The notes below the pieces were generated by a model. It had not been told where the DNA came from. It ran no database searches and was given only the letters and a program-made list of their open reading frames with translations. A stretch of DNA of 62,647 nucleotides, filler included, from Reclinomonas americana ATCC 50394 (taxonomy: Eukaryota): the NCBI GenBank assembly GCA_048213135.1. It is 39 parts of 39 records of this genome, joined end to end, with 100 filler letters (N's around TTAATTAATTAA, not from the genome) between each part and the next. Parts side by side here need not be neighbours in the genome. Positions count along the whole stretch, not along the records: positions 56,372 to 57,868 come from AFZH01025528.1; 38 more parts are not named here. One strand, written 5' to 3'. A program made the position numbers and the translations under genes. Every line of letters starts with the position of its first letter. Within the stretch, counting starts at the first letter, position 1. Shown here piece by piece: positions 1 to 57,868 of the stretch.

Positions 1-1528
1 CTGCGATTCCACAGCTTCAATGCGCCGAGCCCGTGCAAGAGCGGCGCGGATCTCCTCCAGCTGCTTCCGATCCGCTCGCTTCGTCGTATAATCACTGTCG
101 AGCAGCAGCTCCCGCCTGCTAATGACATCGTTCATCAGGCGCTCGGCTTCCTCCAAGTTCTCCATACCGCCGAGTTTCGAGAGGTGGGACGCAAGGTTCT
201 GAGCGCAGCGGACCGCGGTGGCACTAGCATCGCCGTGATCCTCATGTTGACGTACGCGCGTGAAAAGTTCTCGGCTGATTCGAACTGCCTCCTCGTAGTT
301 CTGGCCAGCCTCGTAAGCACGCGCGAGCTCCTCCATGACTTGGAACACCGAATCCTTCTTCGGCGCAGGCAATCGTCGCAGCCCATCCAGCGCATCGCGC
401 AGCAACGCAACGGCTTCATCCGGACGCCCGAGCTTCCGCATGGTGGTACCCATTCTTGCCGTCGTGGAGTGCACGCGAAAATGATCGTCACCCAACTGCC
501 GTGACCACCGCTCACGAACATCCTCCAGCAGAGAAACGGCCTCCGCGAGATTGGCCTTGCCGCCAACATCGCCTAGATACCATCCGAGATTGGAGGCGCA
601 CGCCATGGTCCGTTCGTCGTCGTCGCCGGAGACTTTGCGACGCCGCACTAGCACCTCGCGCGCAATCTCCACTGCCTCTCTGTTCTCTCCGGCGCTGTGG
701 AGAGCTTTGGCGAGATCATGCATCGTTAACAGCGTCGCCTCACTGTCTTTCGGCAAGACTCGTTTCTGACGCCGCAGAATGTCACGTAGCCACAGCGACC
801 TCGTCGTACTGATCGAGCTGGGAGAGAATGCGACACAGCTCCGCAACACGATGCAAGGTGAGAAAATGGTCGGCACCGTAGACTTCGCGCGACGTATCGA
901 CGACATGTTCAAGGACTGTCATAGCCTCGAGCAAGTTCGCCGTGCCGCCGACTCCCGTGAGAGCAGTAGCAAGTATGTCGCCAGCAGCACACCTGAATTT
1001 CTCATCCATTTTCTCTCCTGCCCGCACCATGTCACGGCAAAAGTCAACGGCCTCCTTGAACAACTTTGCGGCACACAGAGCCCCACCGAGATCAAGCAAG
1101 GCCAGTCCAAGATCATCGTCGGTGTCGGGCAGCACACGTTGCATGCTCTCGACAACGGCGCGCAGCACAGGAACGGCCTCGGCGCCTCGCCCCGCTCTCG
1201 TCATTTCAGTGCCCAGGTCGCGCTTCGCGCACATCGCCAACCTGTGGTCGTCGCCATACACACGACTGTATCGTGCCGAGCACTCCTCCAGCACCGTAAC
1301 CGCGTGCACGTGGTCATCCGTCATCGTCAGGCATTTGAGGTGATTGACGGCCGATTGAATCGTCTGCTGGTTGTTGGGGCCGAGAATCTCCGTAAACTCG
1401 CGCACGCACTCGGCAAAGCTGGCAGCCGCTCGCGCGTTGTCGCCGGCCCTGAAGGCCTCCATTGCCTGTGCGTAACGCGCAATCGTGGCATGCAGTCGCC
1501 GATGTTCGCGTTCGCGTTCCGGATCCTG
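1..1528 (-). CDS. TPR-repeat protein (kinesin-light-chain/TPR_10-12-like repeats), partial, one frameshift near 790
   Basis: Repeats such as EILGPNNQQTIQSAVNHL, RVYGDDHRLAMCAKRDLG, EVYGADHFLTLHRVAEL. After the stop at 782 the same repeats continue in a shifted frame (LRDILRRQKRVLPKDSEATLLTMHDLAKAL...RQLGDDHFRVHSTTARMG) to the window edge. Confidence 0.75.
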
Positions 1529-1628
1529 NNNNNNNNNNNNNNNNNNNNNNNNNNNNNNNNNNNNNNNNNNNNTTAATTAATTAANNNNNNNNNNNNNNNN
1601 NNNNNNNNNNNNNNNNNNNNNNNNNNNN
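1529..1628. other. Artificial contig linker (44N-TTAATTAATTAA-44N); first of 38 copies in the window
   Basis: Identical 100-bp block recurs every ~1.6 kb; TTAATTAATTAA gives stops in all six frames; gene content and composition change abruptly across it. Confidence 0.99.
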
Positions 1629-1949
1629 GGTCGGTGGCAGTGATCAGCGGGTTGTTATCAGTCGACTTTTTCTGTTCTGTGTGTCAGCGTGTGAGACAAG
1701 TATGTGTGTGTGTGCGAGAAGAGGGAGATTGTCTCCGCGGACCTGCAAAAAGCAGCAGAGGAGGCGCGGAGGCCGAGAGGAGGAGCAGTGAGCGCAGCAG
1801 CAGCATGCAATGTTATTTTGCCGTAAATTAATGCAATCACCGTACGCGTACACAACAGTTTTTAAACAGACCGGCCGGTTCATTCACCCCCCCCTCTCTC
1901 TCACCAGTATCTAACATAATACACACCCCACACTATTATATGCTGCGGG

Positions 1950-3154
1950 TCAGCAAATGGTTACTCGAGCACGCGGATCGCGCAGTGTTACGCCAAAATG
2001 GAAGCCGTTTGCGATCTCTGTCTCTGGGATCTGCAGCGTGCCAATGAGGCTCGCCGTGACCTGGTGAATGTTGTTCACAAAGAAGGTGATCTCGTTTTGC
2101 ACCAAGTCCAACGTCAGCGTCACCACGTCGCCAGTGCGGTAGCTGCCCGTGTAGCGACCGGCTCGAGAGCTGCCGCGATGCATAATGCCGTAGTCGCTGT
2201 GAAGGGTGAGGTCTGGTGAGCGACGAGAACAACAAGTGGTGAGAGAGAGAGAGAGAGAAACGAAACTTGCCCTCGAGGCCCCATCCTCGCGTGTGCACAC
2301 CCTCCGACACAATGGCCGATGCCGACGTGCAGTTGACCAGTTCCGAGGCCGGCATGATACCGATCCAGTAGTGCGTGGCGGCCGGCTTGTTGTCAATACG
2401 AATGGAAATCTGCACGTCACAAGGGCGTGTCAGCATCGCCAAGCAGTCGCAGAAGGGGAATGAAGTTCAACACTGCTCACCGTGTGCACTTCGCCGGGAT
2501 ACATGCACAGATCGGAGAACACACTGGCGGTCTCGGCCACCGAGTCGGCGGGCCGGCTTGCCGTGCGGTTCTTGTTGCTGAGTTCAATGGCAGCCGACTT
2601 GTACCGTGAGCTGAACGCTGTGCACGGAGACCGAAAGGCGTGAGATGCTGCCGCACACACACAAGAGTCCATGCCGGACGTACCGAGAGAGAAAATGCGC
2701 TCAATCTTGCTCACGAGGAAGCACATGTTCGGCGACTGCATGAGAGCTTCGCACTGTGCCACGGCCCAGATGACGGATTCAATGTTGCGTGCTCGTGAGT
2801 AGGCCTGGTTGGCGGTGTTGCTTGCCAGAGACAGATACAGCGTCGCCAGTGCATGCTCGGTAAGCACCGGATCGTAGCGCTCCGACGACGGATCGATTTG
2901 GAGAGCGTAATCGAGCAGCATCTGCAGGCCACTGCACACACGCAGTGCAATCTGGTTCGTTGTGTGATCTGCACAGCAAAACACGCAAATCATCAGACAC
3001 TGTGTGTTTGAACTCCACACAGCTGTGTGACAAACAAGACGCAACTGCACACGGCGTTCCGAATGGCGCCAACGCATTCCCGCAGCAGCTCCATATCATT
3101 GCAGCGCTTGTCGATCAACGACACCAGCGTCTCCATGCCACCGCACTCGCAGAA
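1950..3154 (-). CDS. Spliced gene: armadillo-like helical region plus C-terminal SPRY/B30.2-like domain, 5' truncated
   Basis: GT-AG introns join YPGEVHT|ISIRIDNKPAATHYWIGI...RGWGL|...SYRTGDVVTLTLDLVQNEITFFVNN (SPRY-type GDxIxxxLD..I.F.xN motif); upstream helical segment EHALATLYLSLASNTANQ. Confidence 0.6.
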
Positions 3155-6504: not shown

Positions 6505-6810
6505 AGCGACACGGAGGAGAGGAGCGAGCAACGACACGGAGGAGAGGAGCGAGCAGCGACACGGAGGAGAGGAGCGAGCAGCGACACGGAGGAGAGGAGT
6601 GAGCGGCGGACACGAAGAGAGAGGAGCGAGCAGCGACACGGAGGAGAGGAGTGAGCGGCGGACACGAAGAGAGAGGAGCGACCAGCGACACGGAGGAGAG
6701 GAGTGAGCAGCGACACGGAGGAGAGGAGCGACCAGCGACACGGAGGAGCGGAGCGACCAGCGACACGGAGGAGAGGAGCAAGCAGCGACATGGGAGAGAG
6801 GAGCGAGCAC
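6505..6810. repeat. Tandem minisatellite, ~25-bp unit AGCGACACGGAGGAGAGGAGCGAGC, about 12 slightly variant copies
   Basis: Direct head-to-tail repeats with no spacers, at a contig end; probably intronic in the SEC3 gene. Confidence 0.9.
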
Positions 6811-7795: not shown

Positions 7796-7893
7796 GAGCG
7801 GCGGAGTTAGCGGGAGAGAGGGCAAGGGGGAAGGGAGAGAAGAGAAAGAGAAGAGTGAGAAGAGTGAGAAGAGAAGAGAGAGAAGTTGTCTGA

Positions 7894-7999
<106 letters not shown>

Positions 8000-8335: not shown

Positions 8336-9442
8336 TTATAAGCACGAGTCGGGATCTTCGCTGCGACGATGCAGCACGACCGCGGCATCCTCGACAATGA
8401 AACAGCGCAGCACCATCTCCGGCAGGCAGCGTGAGTCCGGTTCCCCGTCTTCGCCGACAACAGCAGCTGTTCGCTGCATCTCCTGCACGGCCAGCAGGGC
8501 CGACCGCGCACCGTCGAGCTCCAACCGAGCGAGACCACATGGAGTGGACCACACTCGCACAATGCTGTCGTCGCCTCCACTCACAATGTGCTGCCCATCG
8601 GGAGAGACAACGACAGAAATTACTTCGTGAGCGCGTTCCTCCAGCCGCTGCACTTCCTCTCCACTCGCCAGCGACCACACTCGCACGGTGCCGTCGGCGC
8701 ACCCGCTGACAATAAACTGGCCATTGGGGGTGACAGCGACACTGCGCACCCATCTCTTGTGCCGCTTCAACCGTCGCACTTCCTCACCAGTCGCCAGTGA
8801 CCACACTCGCACAGTCTGGTCCCAACTCCCACTCACAACGAACTGTCCGTCAGGAGTGACGGCGACAGATGACACCAAATCATCATGTCCCTCCAGACAA
8901 TGAACTTCCTCGCCTCTCGCCAGTGACCACACAAGAACTGTAGAGTCATCCCCGCAACTCACAACGAGCTGCCCATCGGGAGTGACGGCGACAGAGCCCA
9001 CCGCGCATCTATGTCCCTGGAACCGTCGCACCTCCTCGCCACTCGCGAATGACCACACGCGCACGGTCTGGTCATAACTCCCACTCACGACATGCTGACC
9101 GTCGGGAGTGACCACAACACTGCGCACCCAGCCAGTGTGCCCCTCCATCCGTCGCACCTCTTGGCCACTCGCCAATAACCACACGCGCACAGTGTTATCA
9201 CCACTCGCGCTGATAATGTGCTGACTGTCGGGAGTGACAACAACGAAGCTCACTGTGTGAGAGTGCCCCTCCAGCCGTCGCACCTCCTTCCCGGTCGCCA
9301 GTGACCACACTCGCATTGTTCTGTCGAGACTCCCACCCACGACGTACCGACCGTCGGGAGAGATGGCGACGCAGTATAACTCGCCAGTGTGCCCAGTGAA
9401 ACGCCTGCAGCGGAAGATGGTGCGTTGCGGGGTGAGTGACAT
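8336..9442 (-). CDS. Intronless 7-blade WD40 protein with ~70-aa C-terminal tail
   Basis: Seven 42-aa repeats of consensus EVRRLEGHxxxVxSVAVTPDGQxVVSGSxDxTVRVWSLASG; likely ATG at 9442 (MSLTPQRT); stop at 8336. Confidence 0.92.
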   Translation of the reverse strand: MSLTPQRTIFRCRRFTGHTGELYCVAISPDGRYVVGGSLDRTMRVWSLATGKEVRRLEGHSHTVSFVVVTPDSQHIISASGDNTVRVWLLASGQEVRRMEGHTGWVRSVVVTPDGQHVVSGSYDQTVRVWSFASGEEVRRFQGHRCAVGSVAVTPDGQLVVSCGDDSTVLVWSLARGEEVHCLEGHDDLVSSVAVTPDGQFVVSGSWDQTVRVWSLATGEEVRRLKRHKRWVRSVAVTPNGQFIVSGCADGTVRVWSLASGEEVQRLEERAHEVISVVVSPDGQHIVSGGDDSIVRVWSTPCGLARLELDGARSALLAVQEMQRTAAVVGEDGEPDSRCLPEMVLRCFIVEDAAVVLHRRSEDPDSCL

Positions 9443-9753
9443 GAGGGAGGTGCGTGGGAGGGGGACGATGATTGAAGTGGGACAATGCAATATGCGCAAT
9501 CGCCGACGATGGAACTGCGAAGCGCCCGAGTACGACAGTAGATTCACTAAAGAACACATACACATACACTCAAGAGCAGACAGGAAACACCCCTCATGGA
9601 TTCAAAACACGAATTGGGGTCGACGCTGCGTCTGTGGACGATGACTGCTGCATNNNNNNNNNNNNNNNNNNNNNNNNNNNNNNNNNNNNNNNNNNNNTTA
9701 ATTAATTAANNNNNNNNNNNNNNNNNNNNNNNNNNNNNNNNNNNNNNNNNNNN

Positions 9754-17560: not shown

Positions 17561-17628
17561 ACGGGGAAAAGGGGGTGAGAAAGGGAAAGGACAGGGAGAG
17601 AGCCGAGAGACGAGAGAGAGAGAGAGAG

Positions 17629-17677
<49 letters not shown>

Positions 17678-17856
17678 AGAAGAGAGAGAAGAAGAGAGAG
17701 AGAAGAGAGAGAGAAGAGAGAGAGAGAAGAGAGAAGAAGAGAGAGAGAGAGAGAAGNNNNNNNNNNNNNNNNNNNNNNNNNNNNNNNNNNNNNNNNNNNN
17801 TTAATTAATTAANNNNNNNNNNNNNNNNNNNNNNNNNNNNNNNNNNNNNNNNNNNN

Positions 17857-27552: not shown

Positions 27553-28751
27553 CCTGGACAGCACGTGATTCGAATCGGATGTGGAATGCAGTGGCTTCCA
27601 GTACTGACGGTGTGAAGTTGGTGGCCACGACGAACAACAACAAGATCTATACATCGACTGACTCGGGCGTCAATTGGACGGCTCGGGATGCCAATCGTTC
27701 GTGGATGTCTGTGGCGTCCAGTACCGACGGTACGAAGTTGGTGGCCGTTGTGAGTCCTGGTCAGGTGTACACGTCGACGGACTCGGGCGTGACGTGGACG
27801 GCTCGAGACTCGAGTCGCAGCTGGACGGCAGTGACGTCTAACGGTGACGGGTCGAAGCTGGTGGCTGGTGAGATTGTTGGTCAGATTTACATGTCGACCG
27901 ACTCGGGTGTGACGTGGACTGGTGTGACGTCGGGGTTGCGGGAGCCGAATGGGTGGCAGTCTGTGGCAGCAAGCAGCGACGGCACGCAGCTGGTGGCAGT
28001 GGGAACCGCCCTTCCAGTTTTCGTTTCTGCTGACTCCGGTGCAACGTGGACAGCTCGTGCCACCAGTCGCAACTGGACGTCGGTGGCGTCCAGCAGTGAC
28101 GGCACGAAGCTGGTGGCTGTGGTGACCAATGACAGAATCTACACCTCCACGGACTCGGGTGTGACGTGGACATCTCGTGATGCGAATCGTAGCTGGATTG
28201 CAGTGGCATCCAGCAGCGACGGCACCAAGTTGGTGGCTGCAGACTCGGGCGGCAGAATCTACACGTCGATCAATTCTGGCGCGGCGTGGACGGCTCGTGA
28301 TACCAGTCGCCTTTGGATTGGAGTGGCCTCCAGCAGTGACGGCACCAAGCTGGTGGCGGTGGTGAATGGCGGCCAGATCTACACATCGACCGACTCGGGT
28401 GCGACGTGGACGGCCCGTGAGACGAATCGTGCGTGGAGCGGAGTGGCGTCGAGCGGTGACGGCACGAAGCTGGTGGCGGTGGTGAATGGCGGCCAGGTCT
28501 ACACGTCGACTGATTCGGGCGTGACATGGACGGCTCGTGCTTCAAGTCGTGCGTGGATGGGTGTGACGTCGAGCAGCGACGGCGCCAAGTTGGCAGCTGT
28601 GGCATCGGGTGACCAAATGTTTGTGTCGACCGATTCTGGTGTAACGTGGACGGCGCGTGACAGCAGTCGCGCGTGGATGGCGGTGACGTCGAGCAGTGAC
28701 GGCGGCGAGCTCGTGGCCGCTGCCGATCTGGTGTACGTGTTCCCGTGTTGA
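27553..28751 (+). CDS. BNR/Asp-box repeat beta-propeller protein, intronless, 5' truncated
   Basis: About ten ~40-aa repeats WxxVASSSDGTKLVAxxxxGxIYTSTDSGVTWTAR (SxDxGxTW Asp-box); stop at 28751. Confidence 0.88.
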
Positions 28752-34920: not shown

Positions 34921-35452
34921 GTGAGGGAGGAAGAGGGGAGATGTGGGGGAAAAGGGATGGAGATGTGGGGGAAAGGGGATGGAGATGGGGGAAAGGGGAT
35001 GGAGAAGGGAGAAGATGGAGGGAGAGAAAGAGATGAAGGGAGAGAGAGAGAGAGGGAAGGGAGAGGGAAGGGAGAAGACGTGGGGGGATGTGGGGAGAGG
35101 GAGGGAGAGAAGGAGATAAGTATGAAGAGAGAGAGAGAGAGAGAGAAGAGACAAGCAGACTGGGAGAAGGCAACCAGAGAGAGAGAGGGAGGTTGAGGGA
35201 GAGAGAGAGGGCAGAGAGAGAGAGAGAGAGGCGACAGAGAGAGGGATGCGACAGAGAGAGATGACAGAGGCGAGAGAAAGATAACTGTGAGTGCAGTGAG
35301 AGCAGAGCGAGAACGGAGAGAATAGGGGTGCATGTGTGTATGTGGGAGAGAATGAGAGAGAGTGAGAGGAAGGGAGAGTGTGTGGGGGAGAGACAGCGAG
35401 GGAAGGTGTGGAAAGGGAGGAGCGATGAGAGAAGTAGTCAAGTGAAAGAGTG

Positions 35453-56099: not shown

Positions 56100-56371
56100 C
56101 TGCGGAGGAATCCCCACAAGGAGAGGTGGGTGAAGGAGGAGGAGGAGGAGAAGGAGATGGGAGAGGAGAAGGAGGAGGGCGAGGAGGAGGAGGAGGAGGA
56201 GGAGGAGGAGGAGGAGGAGGAGGAGGAGGAGGAGAAGTAGAAGACGGAGAGCAGAAGAGGGAAGAAGAAGANNNNNNNNNNNNNNNNNNNNNNNNNNNNN
56301 NNNNNNNNNNNNNNNTTAATTAATTAANNNNNNNNNNNNNNNNNNNNNNNNNNNNNNNNNNNNNNNNNNNN

Positions 56372-57301
56372 AAAAACAATTGGAGGAACAGAACCCGACC
56401 CGCTTGCTGGGCCACGAGGAGAAACAATAGGGGAAACAACAGGAGAAGAAAATGGAGTAGAAGCAGTAGATGCAGTAGAATCCTTATACTTTTTAGAAGA
56501 TATTGCCCGTTTATACCAATTATTTATTTGTTTGGTTGTCGAAGCTGGATCAAGTGCTTTTAATTTTAATCCATCTGTATAATATGTAGATAGAAATAGT
56601 CTTTTATCTTCAATTGTCTTGGCACTAAAACCAGATGCAGGTTCAGGTTCAGCTACAGTTTTAGATTGTTTCATTTCTTTTTTCAAACGTTTGTTTGTTA
56701 TTGTTTCTAACCTTTTTAGAGTTGCAGGACCTTTTTTCTTCAAGTAGTTTTGATAATATTCTTCTGGATTTTCCAAGTATTTATTAATTCTAGGCTCTGT
56801 AGCTTTAATGCCAAATGATTGAATGAGAGTTTTAGCCTGTTGTCTTTTTAATATTTCAGGATCAACAGGTTTAAGAACGACACTAGCAGGTCGTTGCACA
56901 ACCGGAACAGGTGGAGGAACAGTCTTTTGCCCCCTTTTTAATTCATATTTTGTAAGCAAATCTAATTCTTTCTGTGATGTTCTAGGATCTCTCTTTTTAG
57001 ATGCAACATAGTTATTAAAATCACCATTTGACAAAGATAACAACTTATCTTCTTCATCAGCTAATTTCTTTTTAGCTTTATCATATTTTGCTTCATTAAT
57101 TACCTTTTGCATTTGTTCTTGATCAATCTTTTTACGCTTTTGAACTCTATCGTTCAAGTCTTGAATTCTTCTTTGTTGACCCTTTCTTAAATCGTTAGGA
57201 TCATTATTTATTCTCTGTGGAGTCTTTCTTTCTTGTAATACTTTACTAAAGTACTCTCTAATCTCGGCATTGCTTGAGCCTTTCTTAGGGTATCCACTCA
57301 T
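56372..57301 (-). CDS. Lys-rich orphan protein (>310 aa), intronless, AT-rich virus-like contig, 3' truncated
   Basis: ATG at 57301, uninterrupted ORF, A/T-ending codons unlike host contigs. Confidence 0.8.
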
Positions 57302-57318
57302 TATAATATACTTAGAAA

Positions 57319-57741
57319 TTATCTTTTACTAAGTCTTAATTTCAATCTTTCTAACGGTGTCAAATTCTTTTCGTCTAGTTCTATTTCCATTTGTTTTAGT
57401 ATCCTTTCCTCTTCTTTTATAGCTTGTTTTTCTTCCTTTGTTTTATGTTCAACATCAATAGGCTTTTTTAATTCAACAACTGTAGGTTCTTCTTTTTCAA
57501 ATTCCTTATGAGTTTCTTGAAGTTTCTTATATTCAAATGAATTTATTTTATCTTGCATCTTCATTATTGTATCACTCATGTTCCTTATTAATGCGTCATG
57601 CTGATCCTTTTTAGCTTTGTCTTCAGCTAGTTTTTGTTTTCTTTTCTCTTGCCCTTTTTTAAGGTTATCGAGTTGAGCTTGTGACATATTTCTTTTCTTT
57701 TTTATTGCGGTAACTTGAATAGGTGCATTAATTTCTTGCAT
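57319..57741 (-). CDS. 140-aa basic coiled-coil orphan protein, virus-like contig
   Basis: Complete ORF; KKKRNMSQAQLDNLKKGQEKRKQK; only 17 bp to the next ATG. Confidence 0.8.
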   Translation of the reverse strand: MQEINAPIQVTAIKKKRNMSQAQLDNLKKGQEKRKQKLAEDKAKKDQHDALIRNMSDTIMKMQDKINSFEYKKLQETHKEFEKEEPTVVELKKPIDVEHKTKEEKQAIKEEERILKQMEIELDEKNLTPLERLKLRLSKR

Positions 57742-57776
57742 CTTATATAATAGTTTGCGAAAATAATTAACGGAAA

Positions 57777-57868
57777 CTAGAAGGCATCATCACTGAATTC
57801 AAGAACAAATGAATAATGTTTATTGTTTAATTTAATCTTATTGCCCCATACATCAGTTAAACTGAATT
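57777..57868 (-). CDS. Putative minor capsid (penton, single jelly-roll) protein C-terminus, 5' truncated; not in the ORF track
   Basis: Minus-strand translation FSLTDVWGNKIKLNNKHYSFVLEFSDDAF* fits the terminal xxLxDxxGxxxxLNxxxxSFxLEF pattern of PLV/Polinton/virophage/NCLDV pentons; only 29 aa visible. Confidence 0.6.

Follow-up and report, generated by a model that had tools for sequence, protein, structure and literature searches.

A foreign, AT-rich and gene-dense contig in the assembly of a GC-rich protist, possibly derived from an unclassified virus or virus-like element

INTRODUCTION

AT-rich endogenous elements resembling virophages are known in GC-rich protist genomes, as exemplified by the mavirus-like elements of Cafeteria. 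Their hallmarks are terminal repeats together with genes for capsid, ATPase, protease, polymerase and integrase. The mitochondrial genomes and linear plasmids of protists are also AT-rich and gene-dense, with lineage-specific basic ORFs.

For the capsid genes of such elements, the available text of the 2014 Polinton capsid paper (PMC4028283) indicates that penton genes adjoin the major capsid gene or stand one gene away, and that sequence similarity among pentons is low; the words 'motif' and 'C-terminal' have no occurrence in that text. In the accessible part of a study of Polinton-like viruses (PLVs) (Yutin et al. 2015, PMC4642659), one minor capsid protein contains D-x-x-G-x-x-I-x-L and, later, a hydrophobic alternating strand, and another contains Y-x-x-V-L-E-L.

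A first-pass annotation of DNA from Reclinomonas americana had singled out one AT-rich contig as part of a Polinton-like virus, virophage or giant virus, with the end of a penton gene at its edge. The description of this DNA as foreign, gene-dense, unlike the host and devoid of bacterial-type ribosome-binding words was upheld by our analysis; for the penton we obtained no positive evidence. Our conclusion, held with slightly more confidence than doubt, is that we are dealing with a piece of a foreign replicon that is AT-rich and dense in genes, most probably a virus or a virus-like mobile element, as yet unclassified, a eukaryotic DNA virus being likelier than a phage.

RESULTS AND DISCUSSION

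Composition and codon usage mark the contig as foreign

The window, i.e. the whole stretch of DNA analysed (62,647 nucleotides, filler included), is made of 39 contigs of 1487-1528 bp with N/TTAATTAATTAA spacers between them. The features of the contig of interest are listed in Table 1. As previously noticed, it is the sole AT-rich one (the other 38 of the 39 have a GC content of 0.529-0.677), and it is free of microsatellites: Tandem Repeats Finder reported 54 rows for the window, none of them within this contig. The difference extends to codon usage. GC3 is 0.20-0.21 in the contig genes versus 0.65-0.75 in four host ORFs with Pfam domains (WD40, BNR/sortilin, PH+LRR and TPR, respectively), and on that basis we consider the contig DNA foreign to the host nucleus. 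It thus lacks the nuclear signature of the host in composition, codon usage and microsatellites alike. Similarity to the remainder of the window was nowhere better than E 0.078 (blastn and tblastn). Direct and inverted repeats were nothing of note, the inverted repeat found (21 nt, 86% complementary) being internal to the contig.

Table 1. Features of the AT-rich contig (positions along the window)
Feature	Position	Strand	Description
AT-rich contig	56372..57868	.	1497 bp, GC 0.318
Gene 1, 3' end	57777..57868	-	29 codons, then TAG stop at 57779..57777
Spacer gene 1/ORF2	57742..57776	-	35 nt, TTTC right after the stop, no Shine-Dalgarno-like word
ORF2	57319..57741	-	complete, 140 aa, TAA stop
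Spacer ORF2/ORF3	57302..57318	-	17 nt, TTTC right after the TAA stop, no Shine-Dalgarno-like word
ORF3	56372..57301	-	310 aa, open to contig end, no stop
ORF3 residues 1-141, conserved N-terminal domain	56879..57301	-	match to P0004
ORF3 residues 95-133, internal module copy 1	56903..57019	-	aromatic helix, Lys-rich stretch, Pro-rich linker
ORF3 residues 183-221, internal module copy 2	56639..56755	-	local alignment to copy 1
ORF3 residues 263-310, tail	56372..56515	-	Ser/Thr/Pro/Gly-rich composition

Only one public DNA run was found to contain this sequence, as a single identical contig of 154 bp at depth 2; the run may be the source sample, and the match gives no independent support. No RNA run containing the contig sequence was listed. 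A 1.5-kb contig together with a 154-bp piece of depth 2 suits a low-level contaminant of any kind.

Foreignness to the nucleus would also be displayed by a piece of organelle genome, by an organelle or cytoplasmic plasmid, or by a second, AT-rich and compact eukaryote (a co-cultured organism or a symbiont). The AT richness, gene density and basic ORFs common among protist mitochondrial genomes and linear plasmids agree with such a source, which we nevertheless regard as quite unlikely. Neither tRNA genes nor Rfam matches were detected in the 1.5 kb examined, and within that length no rRNA or respiratory-chain gene, no organellar protein of Pfam and no organellar genetic code was found: both Trp codons are TGG and in-frame TGA is absent from the contig genes. 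From an organelle of high copy number one would expect long contigs, not 1.5 kb at depth 2, and for ordinary nuclear genes the spacers are too short (see below). Among 1.84 billion representative proteins, as reported further on, relatives in named genomes were also lacking.

Three genes are packed on one strand, without Shine-Dalgarno sites

The tight, co-oriented arrangement of three genes was reproduced, all of them lying on the minus strand with spacers of 35 and 17 nt. On the coding strand, AGGAG, GGAGG, GAGG and AGGA are absent from both spacers, which confirms the lack of Shine-Dalgarno motifs. Phages of hosts that do without Shine-Dalgarno sites would appear alike. For the reported lack of introns the support is indirect: ORF2 is continuous, and ORF3 is colinear with its relative over residues 4-141. 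GC1 exceeds GC3 in ORF2 as well as in ORF3.

Both spacers contain the word TATTATA. It occupies 57752..57746 in the longer one, the 3' end of which reads ...TATATAAG and is followed by the ATG, and 57308..57302 in the shorter one, where it abuts the ATG of ORF3. The sharing is at chance level, 474 of 2000 random pairs of 40-mers from the contig having in common a word at least as long; TATTATA was rejected as a proven promoter, since in AT-rich DNA such sharing is not significant. Scans of the contig for sigma-70-like promoters and for terminators only reached the level of shuffled sequences and their candidates were likewise discarded.

ORF3 is a real gene with a single cluster of relatives

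ORF3 is a real gene; its open frame of 318 codons was not reached in any of 1000 shuffles. Like gene 1, it is truncated, since it runs off the contig without a stop. The claim of two very basic orphan proteins needs amending on both counts. Very basic applies to ORF3 (pI 9.95; 63 K+R versus 35 D+E), whereas ORF2, which is rich in Lys and Glu, is rather of mixed charge (pI 9.34; 34 K+R versus 28 D+E). Nor is ORF3 a strict orphan: a search covering 1.84 billion representative proteins returned one cluster of relatives (n=1), consisting of P0004 and P0005 (259 and 264 aa). The alignment with P0004 spans residues 4-141 of ORF3, with 47% identity (E 2e-22). The two relatives are encoded on contigs of 5537-5538 bp and were found only in Logan (SRA-wide) assemblies. 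A profile built from ORF3 and its relatives retrieved nothing beyond them, and a word-index search with ORF3 gave no relative.

ORF3 is predicted to be all-helical. Its residues 41-120 are modelled by AF2 with a pLDDT of about 82-85, and regions of low confidence lie past residue ~125. An internal duplication was detected by local alignment (score 49, z 4.5), with none of 300 shuffles scoring as high. The N-terminal 140 residues aligned with P0004 and P0005 include the first copy of the duplicated module. ORF3 and P0004 have in common their richness in Lys and the absence of any Pfam or NCBIfam family (for ORF3, none in NCBIfam at E<=1); they differ in their C-terminal halves, which are unrelated, P0004 having a Lys/Gly tail where ORF3 goes on with the second copy of the module and then a tail rich in Ser, Thr and Pro. 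Structure-based searches were negative for ORF3: its low-confidence model gave no match in BFVD at E<=0.001 (Foldseek), the ESM Atlas no usable match, and the profile of alignment A1 no better than E 0.58 in the PDB, with an unrelated protein.

ORF2 is a charged, helical protein

Open frames of at least 140 codons, the length of ORF2, arose in 7 of 1000 shuffles. Residues 21-83, 102-125 and 129-139 are predicted to form long helices. Sequence searches gave no relative of ORF2, and the NCBIfam matches were chance-level hits to coiled coils (best E 0.088). In the ESM Atlas, the three clusters nearest to ORF2 are 100% viral (two of Uroviricota and one of Nucleocytoviricota) with scores of 0.90-0.91; this result is under the recognition threshold (1853 < 2300), and shuffled proteins score 0.9 there in 4-10% of cases. 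These clusters are a weak lead to a viral source.

Searches of viral, prokaryotic and plasmid sequences

The contig contains no viral hallmark gene, and IMG/VR, BFVD and PHROGs were without significant match. IMG/VR was queried with ORF3, ORF2, alignment A1, P0004 and a pattern of the invariant motif, in each case with no relative found; in PHROGs, ORF2 and ORF3 matched nothing better than E 0.2. No relative was detected by tblastn or blastn in 50,697 phage records, by pattern and tblastn in 185,579 genomes of prokaryote species, with alignment A1 in prokaryote genome contigs, or among plasmids. Five prokaryote loci with the invariant motif were examined and rejected, their match being limited to the motif that had been enforced. 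JGI metagenome contigs, with P0004 and alignment A1 as queries, gave no match, and none of the named genomes among the 1.84 billion representatives holds a relative of ORF3.

These results bear on the possibility that the contig comes from a bacteriophage whose host does not use Shine-Dalgarno sites, or from an AT-rich bacterium of that kind, as a contaminant of the culture or of the sequencing. Tightly packed, co-oriented orphan genes are typical of phages. Uroviricota account for two of the three ESM Atlas clusters nearest to ORF2, the best BFVD fold matches, although non-significant, are mostly to phage proteins, and the very low depth suits a contaminant. We nonetheless judge this origin unlikely: the collections just listed gave no family or genome match by which phage or bacterial DNA would be identified, the two spacers are devoid of Shine-Dalgarno words, and the one relative of ORF3 is not in the JGI metagenome collection scanned. 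A weak additional argument comes from the Pro-rich linkers and Ser/Thr/Pro tail of ORF3. Such features are commoner in the proteins of eukaryotes and of their viruses.

The end of gene 1 and the penton interpretation

The truncated first gene and its peptide were recovered as reported: reading from 57866 to 57777 yields FSLTDVWGNKIKLNNKHYSFVLEFSDDAF, followed by TAG. For gene 1, an open stretch of 29 codons is within the reach of chance (8-23% of shuffles) and does not on its own prove coding: 417 of 5000 shuffles are open in one given frame and 1167 of 5000 in any of the three frames. On the non-coding strand, 274 of 1411 windows of 29 codons are open. The alternating hydrophobic/polar pattern of the peptide suggests beta strands.

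According to the first-pass annotation, the contig would be a morphogenesis module, from a Polinton-like virus, a virophage or a giant virus, in which gene 1 encodes a single jelly-roll penton and ORF2 and ORF3 core or DNA-condensing proteins. Some properties agree with it. The alternation in the peptide fits two or three beta strands, and the peptide stops 5 residues past the last of them, as would be expected of jelly-roll strand I; ORF3 is basic and its relative has a Lys/Gly tail; AT-rich virophage-like elements are known from GC-rich protist genomes. Moreover, two PLV minor capsid proteins of the Yutin 2015 supplement, SAF1_14 and SAF2_08 (PMC4642659), possess in the accessible text late, strand-like stretches which by eye (n=2) loosely resemble the D-x-x-G-x-x-I-x-L and V-L-E-[FL] of the peptide.

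That resemblance was however judged by eye in 2 of 18 annotated entries, with a motif picked after the peptide had been seen, and it is without statistical match. The stretches in the PLV proteins are not terminal: in the accessible sequences these proteins continue for at least roughly 30-50 residues past them, whereas the peptide has only 5 more residues. The 1.39 million characters of the Yutin 2015 supplement contain none of six 5-residue words taken from the peptide. Back-translated short motifs of two published PLV minor capsid proteins each had 0 matches in IMG/VR.

Profile searches with the peptide and with both ORFs, called for by the penton claim, yielded no Pfam, PHROGs or NCBIfam match in favour of a penton or minor capsid protein. 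For the peptide, whose 29 residues leave these searches little power, there was no family in Pfam at E<=10 or in NCBIfam at E<=1, the best PHROGs match was a family of unknown function (E 0.33) and the best PDB match the unrelated human MLL1 (E=1). A tblastn match in a phage genome (E=1) was dismissed as internal to an unrelated 134-aa ORF. A degenerate W-G-N...S-F-x-L-E-F pattern scanned over IMG/VR picked up 27 loci, with the motif in frame at 8. A single ORF, the same at two loci (L003 and L023), terminates near the motif; it has no Pfam family and a best PHROGs match of E 0.014 to a function-unknown family, and was rejected as chance.

In the gene neighbourhood, nothing identifies a capsid module. 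ORF2 and ORF3, both with predicted all-helical folds, are accordingly not jelly-roll capsid proteins, and the downstream side of gene 1 is thus devoid of the double jelly-roll capsid gene which, in the available text of PMC4028283, lies beside the penton gene or one gene from it; the upstream side is off the contig. Within the 1497 bp there is also no A32-type ATPase, protease, polymerase or primase-helicase, integrase or terminal repeat, i.e. none of the PLV, virophage or Nucleocytoviricota hallmarks. All in all, we hold the penton interpretation to be very unlikely. We give equally little credence to its extended form, in which the contig would be the edge of a block of virion genes from a DNA virus or Polinton-like element not yet described and associated with the GC-rich protist. 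Gene 1 would then code for a jelly-roll vertex protein, and ORF2 and ORF3 for virion proteins of a new kind, charged and helical (serving as scaffold, as tape measure or in genome condensation), from a family seen only twice so far.

A virus-like replicon as the likeliest source

An unclassified virus or virus-like element, preferably of a eukaryote, is the source that we favour. Its replicon would have been co-assembled with the GC-rich protist, or would be present within it at low copy. Gene 1 would provide the C-terminal 29 residues of a protein that is probably rich in beta strands, ORF2 a complete mixed-charge coiled-coil protein of 140 aa, and ORF3 a basic helical protein of at least 310 aa. 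In the latter, a conserved 140-aa N-terminal domain is combined with a duplicated internal module, linkers rich in proline and a Ser/Thr/Pro tail at the end of the known sequence. The short AT-rich TATTATA right before the ATGs of ORF2 and ORF3 could replace the Shine-Dalgarno site, and the two proteins may be structural or associated with nucleic acids.

With the mavirus-like elements of Cafeteria, the contig shares a low GC content and a gene density that set it apart from a GC-rich host assembly; it differs from them in that none of their hallmarks is present in its 1.5 kb and that no join to host DNA was seen. If it does belong to a DNA virus, or to an integrated virus-like element, of the protist, it would represent a new pairing of host and virus as well as a new family of proteins. 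At present it counts among the short orphan pieces commonly met in fragmented protist assemblies, and its annotation as nuclear DNA of the host should be avoided.

One local feature could have been mistaken for a junction with host DNA: the GC content rises at the left end of the contig (0.52 over the first 60 nt). This possibility was rejected, the segment having no similarity to the other contigs; the rise is due to the Pro/Gly/Ser-rich coding of the ORF3 tail.

Composition of the AT-rich contig

The window is made up of 39 contigs of 1487-1528 bp each, separated by N runs around TTAATTAATTAA as spacers. From position 1 to 62647 they follow one another in roughly falling length (1528 to 1487 bp) and are unrelated; since the concatenation is artificial, neighbours in window coordinates have no genomic meaning. 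The first-pass annotation had singled out one contig (56372-57868, 1497 bp) as AT-rich and devoid of microsatellites. Both points were borne out: its GC content is 0.318 versus 0.529-0.677 for the 38 others, and none of the 54 Tandem Repeats Finder rows of the window falls in it, GA/AG, GAG and CT arrays being abundant in the contigs next to it. Eukaryote-type Pfam domains (E<=1e-5; WD40, sortilin/BNR, PH+LRR and TPR) were present in 4 of 16 long open frames from other contigs. Third-position GC was 0.65-0.75 in these four host ORFs versus 0.20-0.21 in ORF2 and ORF3, the two long ORFs of the AT-rich contig. From these contrasts in GC and third-position GC, we concluded that the contig is compositionally foreign to the host nucleus. 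No similarity was found between it and any other window contig. Only one public run had words in common with it, in the form of a single identical contig of 154 bp (depth 2); this run may be the source sample.

Gene organization

Features of the AT-rich contig (window coordinates)
Feature	Position	Strand	Description
Gene 1, 3' end	TAG stop 57779..57777	-	last 29 codons, FSLTDVWGNKIKLNNKHYSFVLEFSDDAF (translation)
Spacer gene 1/ORF2	35 nt	-	no Shine-Dalgarno word
ORF2	57741..57319	-	140 aa, TAA stop
Spacer ORF2/ORF3	17 nt	-	no Shine-Dalgarno word
ORF3	from 57301, open to contig end	-	310 aa visible, truncated

As annotated initially, three closely packed genes lie on the same strand, the first of them truncated; that ORF3 is also truncated, being still open at the contig end, had not been mentioned. 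The reported lack of Shine-Dalgarno motifs was confirmed, AGGAG, GGAGG, GAGG and AGGA being all absent from the coding strand of both spacers. A phage, or a bacterium without Shine-Dalgarno sites, is an unlikely source of the contig; searches of phage records (tblastn or blastn) and of prokaryote species genomes gave no relative. Both spacers start with TTTC immediately after the stop codon and contain TATTATA at most 12 nt from the ATG, a word found 3 times on the coding strand of the contig and 0 times on the opposite one. Because 7-mers are often common to 40-nt stretches of this contig (474 of 2000 random pairs), TATTATA as a signal is a lead only. Each gene would be expressed separately, its ATG directly preceded by a short AT-rich signal.

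The longest open frame (318 codons, ORF3) was equalled in 0 of 1000 mononucleotide shuffles (maximum 165), and frames of at least 140 codons, the size of ORF2, were seen in 7 of 1000. In both ORFs GC1 is well above GC3. An exhaustive phmmer search of 1.84 billion representative proteins revealed one relative of ORF3, the 259-aa protein P0004 (E 2e-22), with 47% identity over ORF3 residues 4-141; the N-terminal domain is conserved and the C-terminal halves are unrelated. The P0004 cluster has two members, both solely from Logan assemblies, where they sit on contigs roughly 5.5 kb long. Of the two proteins first described as orphans, ORF2 had no relative in the collections searched, and ORF3 is not strictly an orphan. 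The best-supported reading is that ORF2 and ORF3 are real genes, essentially orphan. Gene 1 is weaker as a gene: with one given frame considered, 417 of 5000 shuffles had 29 open codons at its position, a count that rose to 1167 of 5000 when any of three frames was allowed, and 274 of 1411 windows of 29 codons are open on the non-coding strand. Its case rests on context, i.e. the orientation and stop-TTTC spacer layout that it shares with the other genes.

Properties of the ORF2 and ORF3 proteins

The description of both proteins as very basic holds for ORF3 (pI 9.95, 63 K+R, 35 D+E) and not for ORF2, which is of mixed charge (pI 9.34, 34 K+R versus 28 D+E). The AlphaFold2 model of ORF2 (mean pLDDT 79) displays long helices at 21-83, 102-125 and 129-139. 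That of ORF3, built from a three-sequence alignment, is all-helical, with a pLDDT of about 82-85 at 41-120 and low afterwards (mean 57). Neither model contains beta strands and, on these predictions, neither protein is a jelly-roll protein. ORF3 is internally duplicated (residues 95-133 versus 183-221; score 49, z 4.5, equalled in 0 of 300 shuffles), each copy running from an aromatic helix through a stretch rich in Lys to a Pro-rich linker. Its visible end is a Ser/Thr/Pro/Gly tail, which accounts for the higher GC at the contig's left end. Such charged helical products may have a structural or nucleic-acid-binding role.

Searches for relatives and origin of the contig

Profile searches with both ORFs and the 29-aa peptide of gene 1, to which the first-pass annotation had looked for support, gave no significant match, their power being low for so short a peptide: the best E-value was 0.03 in Pfam, short of every cut-off, and 0.2-0.4 in PHROGs, and NCBIfam returned chance coiled-coil matches only. 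The PDB sequence search gave E 1 for the peptide (human MLL1) and 0.58 for the ORF3 profile, and Foldseek with the ORF3 model had 0 matches in BFVD at E<=0.001. No relative emerged from the JGI metagenome contigs or from five scans of IMG/VR with these proteins or their motifs. Five motif matches in prokaryote species genomes agreed only at the enforced motif. Plasmids contained no relative. An organelle, a plasmid or a second eukaryote is quite unlikely as source; the contig has no tRNA gene or Rfam family. In the ESM Atlas, ORF3 had no usable match; the three clusters nearest to ORF2 were 100% viral (two Uroviricota, one Nucleocytoviricota), with scores of 0.90-0.91 at a recognition value of 1853, under the 2300 mark, shuffled proteins attaining 0.9 in 4-10% of cases. 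This weak lead points towards 'virus-like', nothing more. The contig is best read as a piece of some foreign replicon that is AT-rich and densely packed with genes, and we lean somewhat towards a virus or virus-like element. Orphan contigs of this type are frequent in fragmented protist assemblies.

Gene 1 had been taken for a single jelly-roll minor capsid protein (penton) in a viral morphogenesis module, on the strength of a C-terminal LxDxxG...SFxLEF hairpin regarded as an established signature. In the part available of Krupovic et al. 2014 (PMC4028283), 'motif' and 'C-terminal' occur 0 times; there, the low sequence similarity of pentons is stressed, and their gene adjoins the major capsid gene or sits one gene off. 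The motif was, moreover, defined only after the peptide had been seen. For Polinton-like viruses (PLVs), the comparison covered 2 of 18 annotated minor capsid entries in the available part of the supplement of Yutin et al. 2015 (PMC4642659). By eye, both resemble the peptide, one with D-x-x-G-x-x-I-x-L and a later alternating hydrophobic strand, the other with ...Y-x-x-V-L-E-L, but in the part displayed about 30-50 more residues follow these stretches, which are not the protein end. Six 5-residue words taken from the peptide are all absent from that supplement. The only phage-genome match of the peptide (E 1) is internal to a 134-aa ORF that is unrelated. When IMG/VR was scanned with the degenerate pattern W-G-N...S-F-x-L-E-F, 27 loci emerged, 8 in frame; only a single ORF, found in identical form on two contigs, stops close to the motif, and it has no informative family. 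Even within a viral origin, the penton and morphogenesis-module reading is very unlikely. The ORF just mentioned (227 aa; 1459-2139, minus strand, in L003, same coordinates in L023; contigs of 74.8 and 102.7 kb) has no Pfam family and a weak PHROG match, and surfaced by chance.

Repeats in the host contigs

The host ORF at 27555-28748 (plus strand) carries 120-nt (40-aa) tandem repeats at 28032-28593 matching BNR/Asp-box and sortilin-Vps10 profiles, and is accordingly predicted to encode a beta-propeller repeat protein. That at 8339-9601 (minus strand) has seven WD40 repeats (Pfam E 1.9e-78), detected by Tandem Repeats Finder as a 126-nt periodicity (8638-9360). A 25-nt tandem repeat (12 copies, 87% matches) occupies 6505-6809, from the very start of its contig. 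Very long GA/AG dinucleotide arrays of some 80 copies, together with one AGG array of 34 copies, are found at 7835-7998, 17596-17754, 35126-35281 and 56134-56234; in several host contigs such arrays are frequently at contig ends, and they probably caused assembly breaks.
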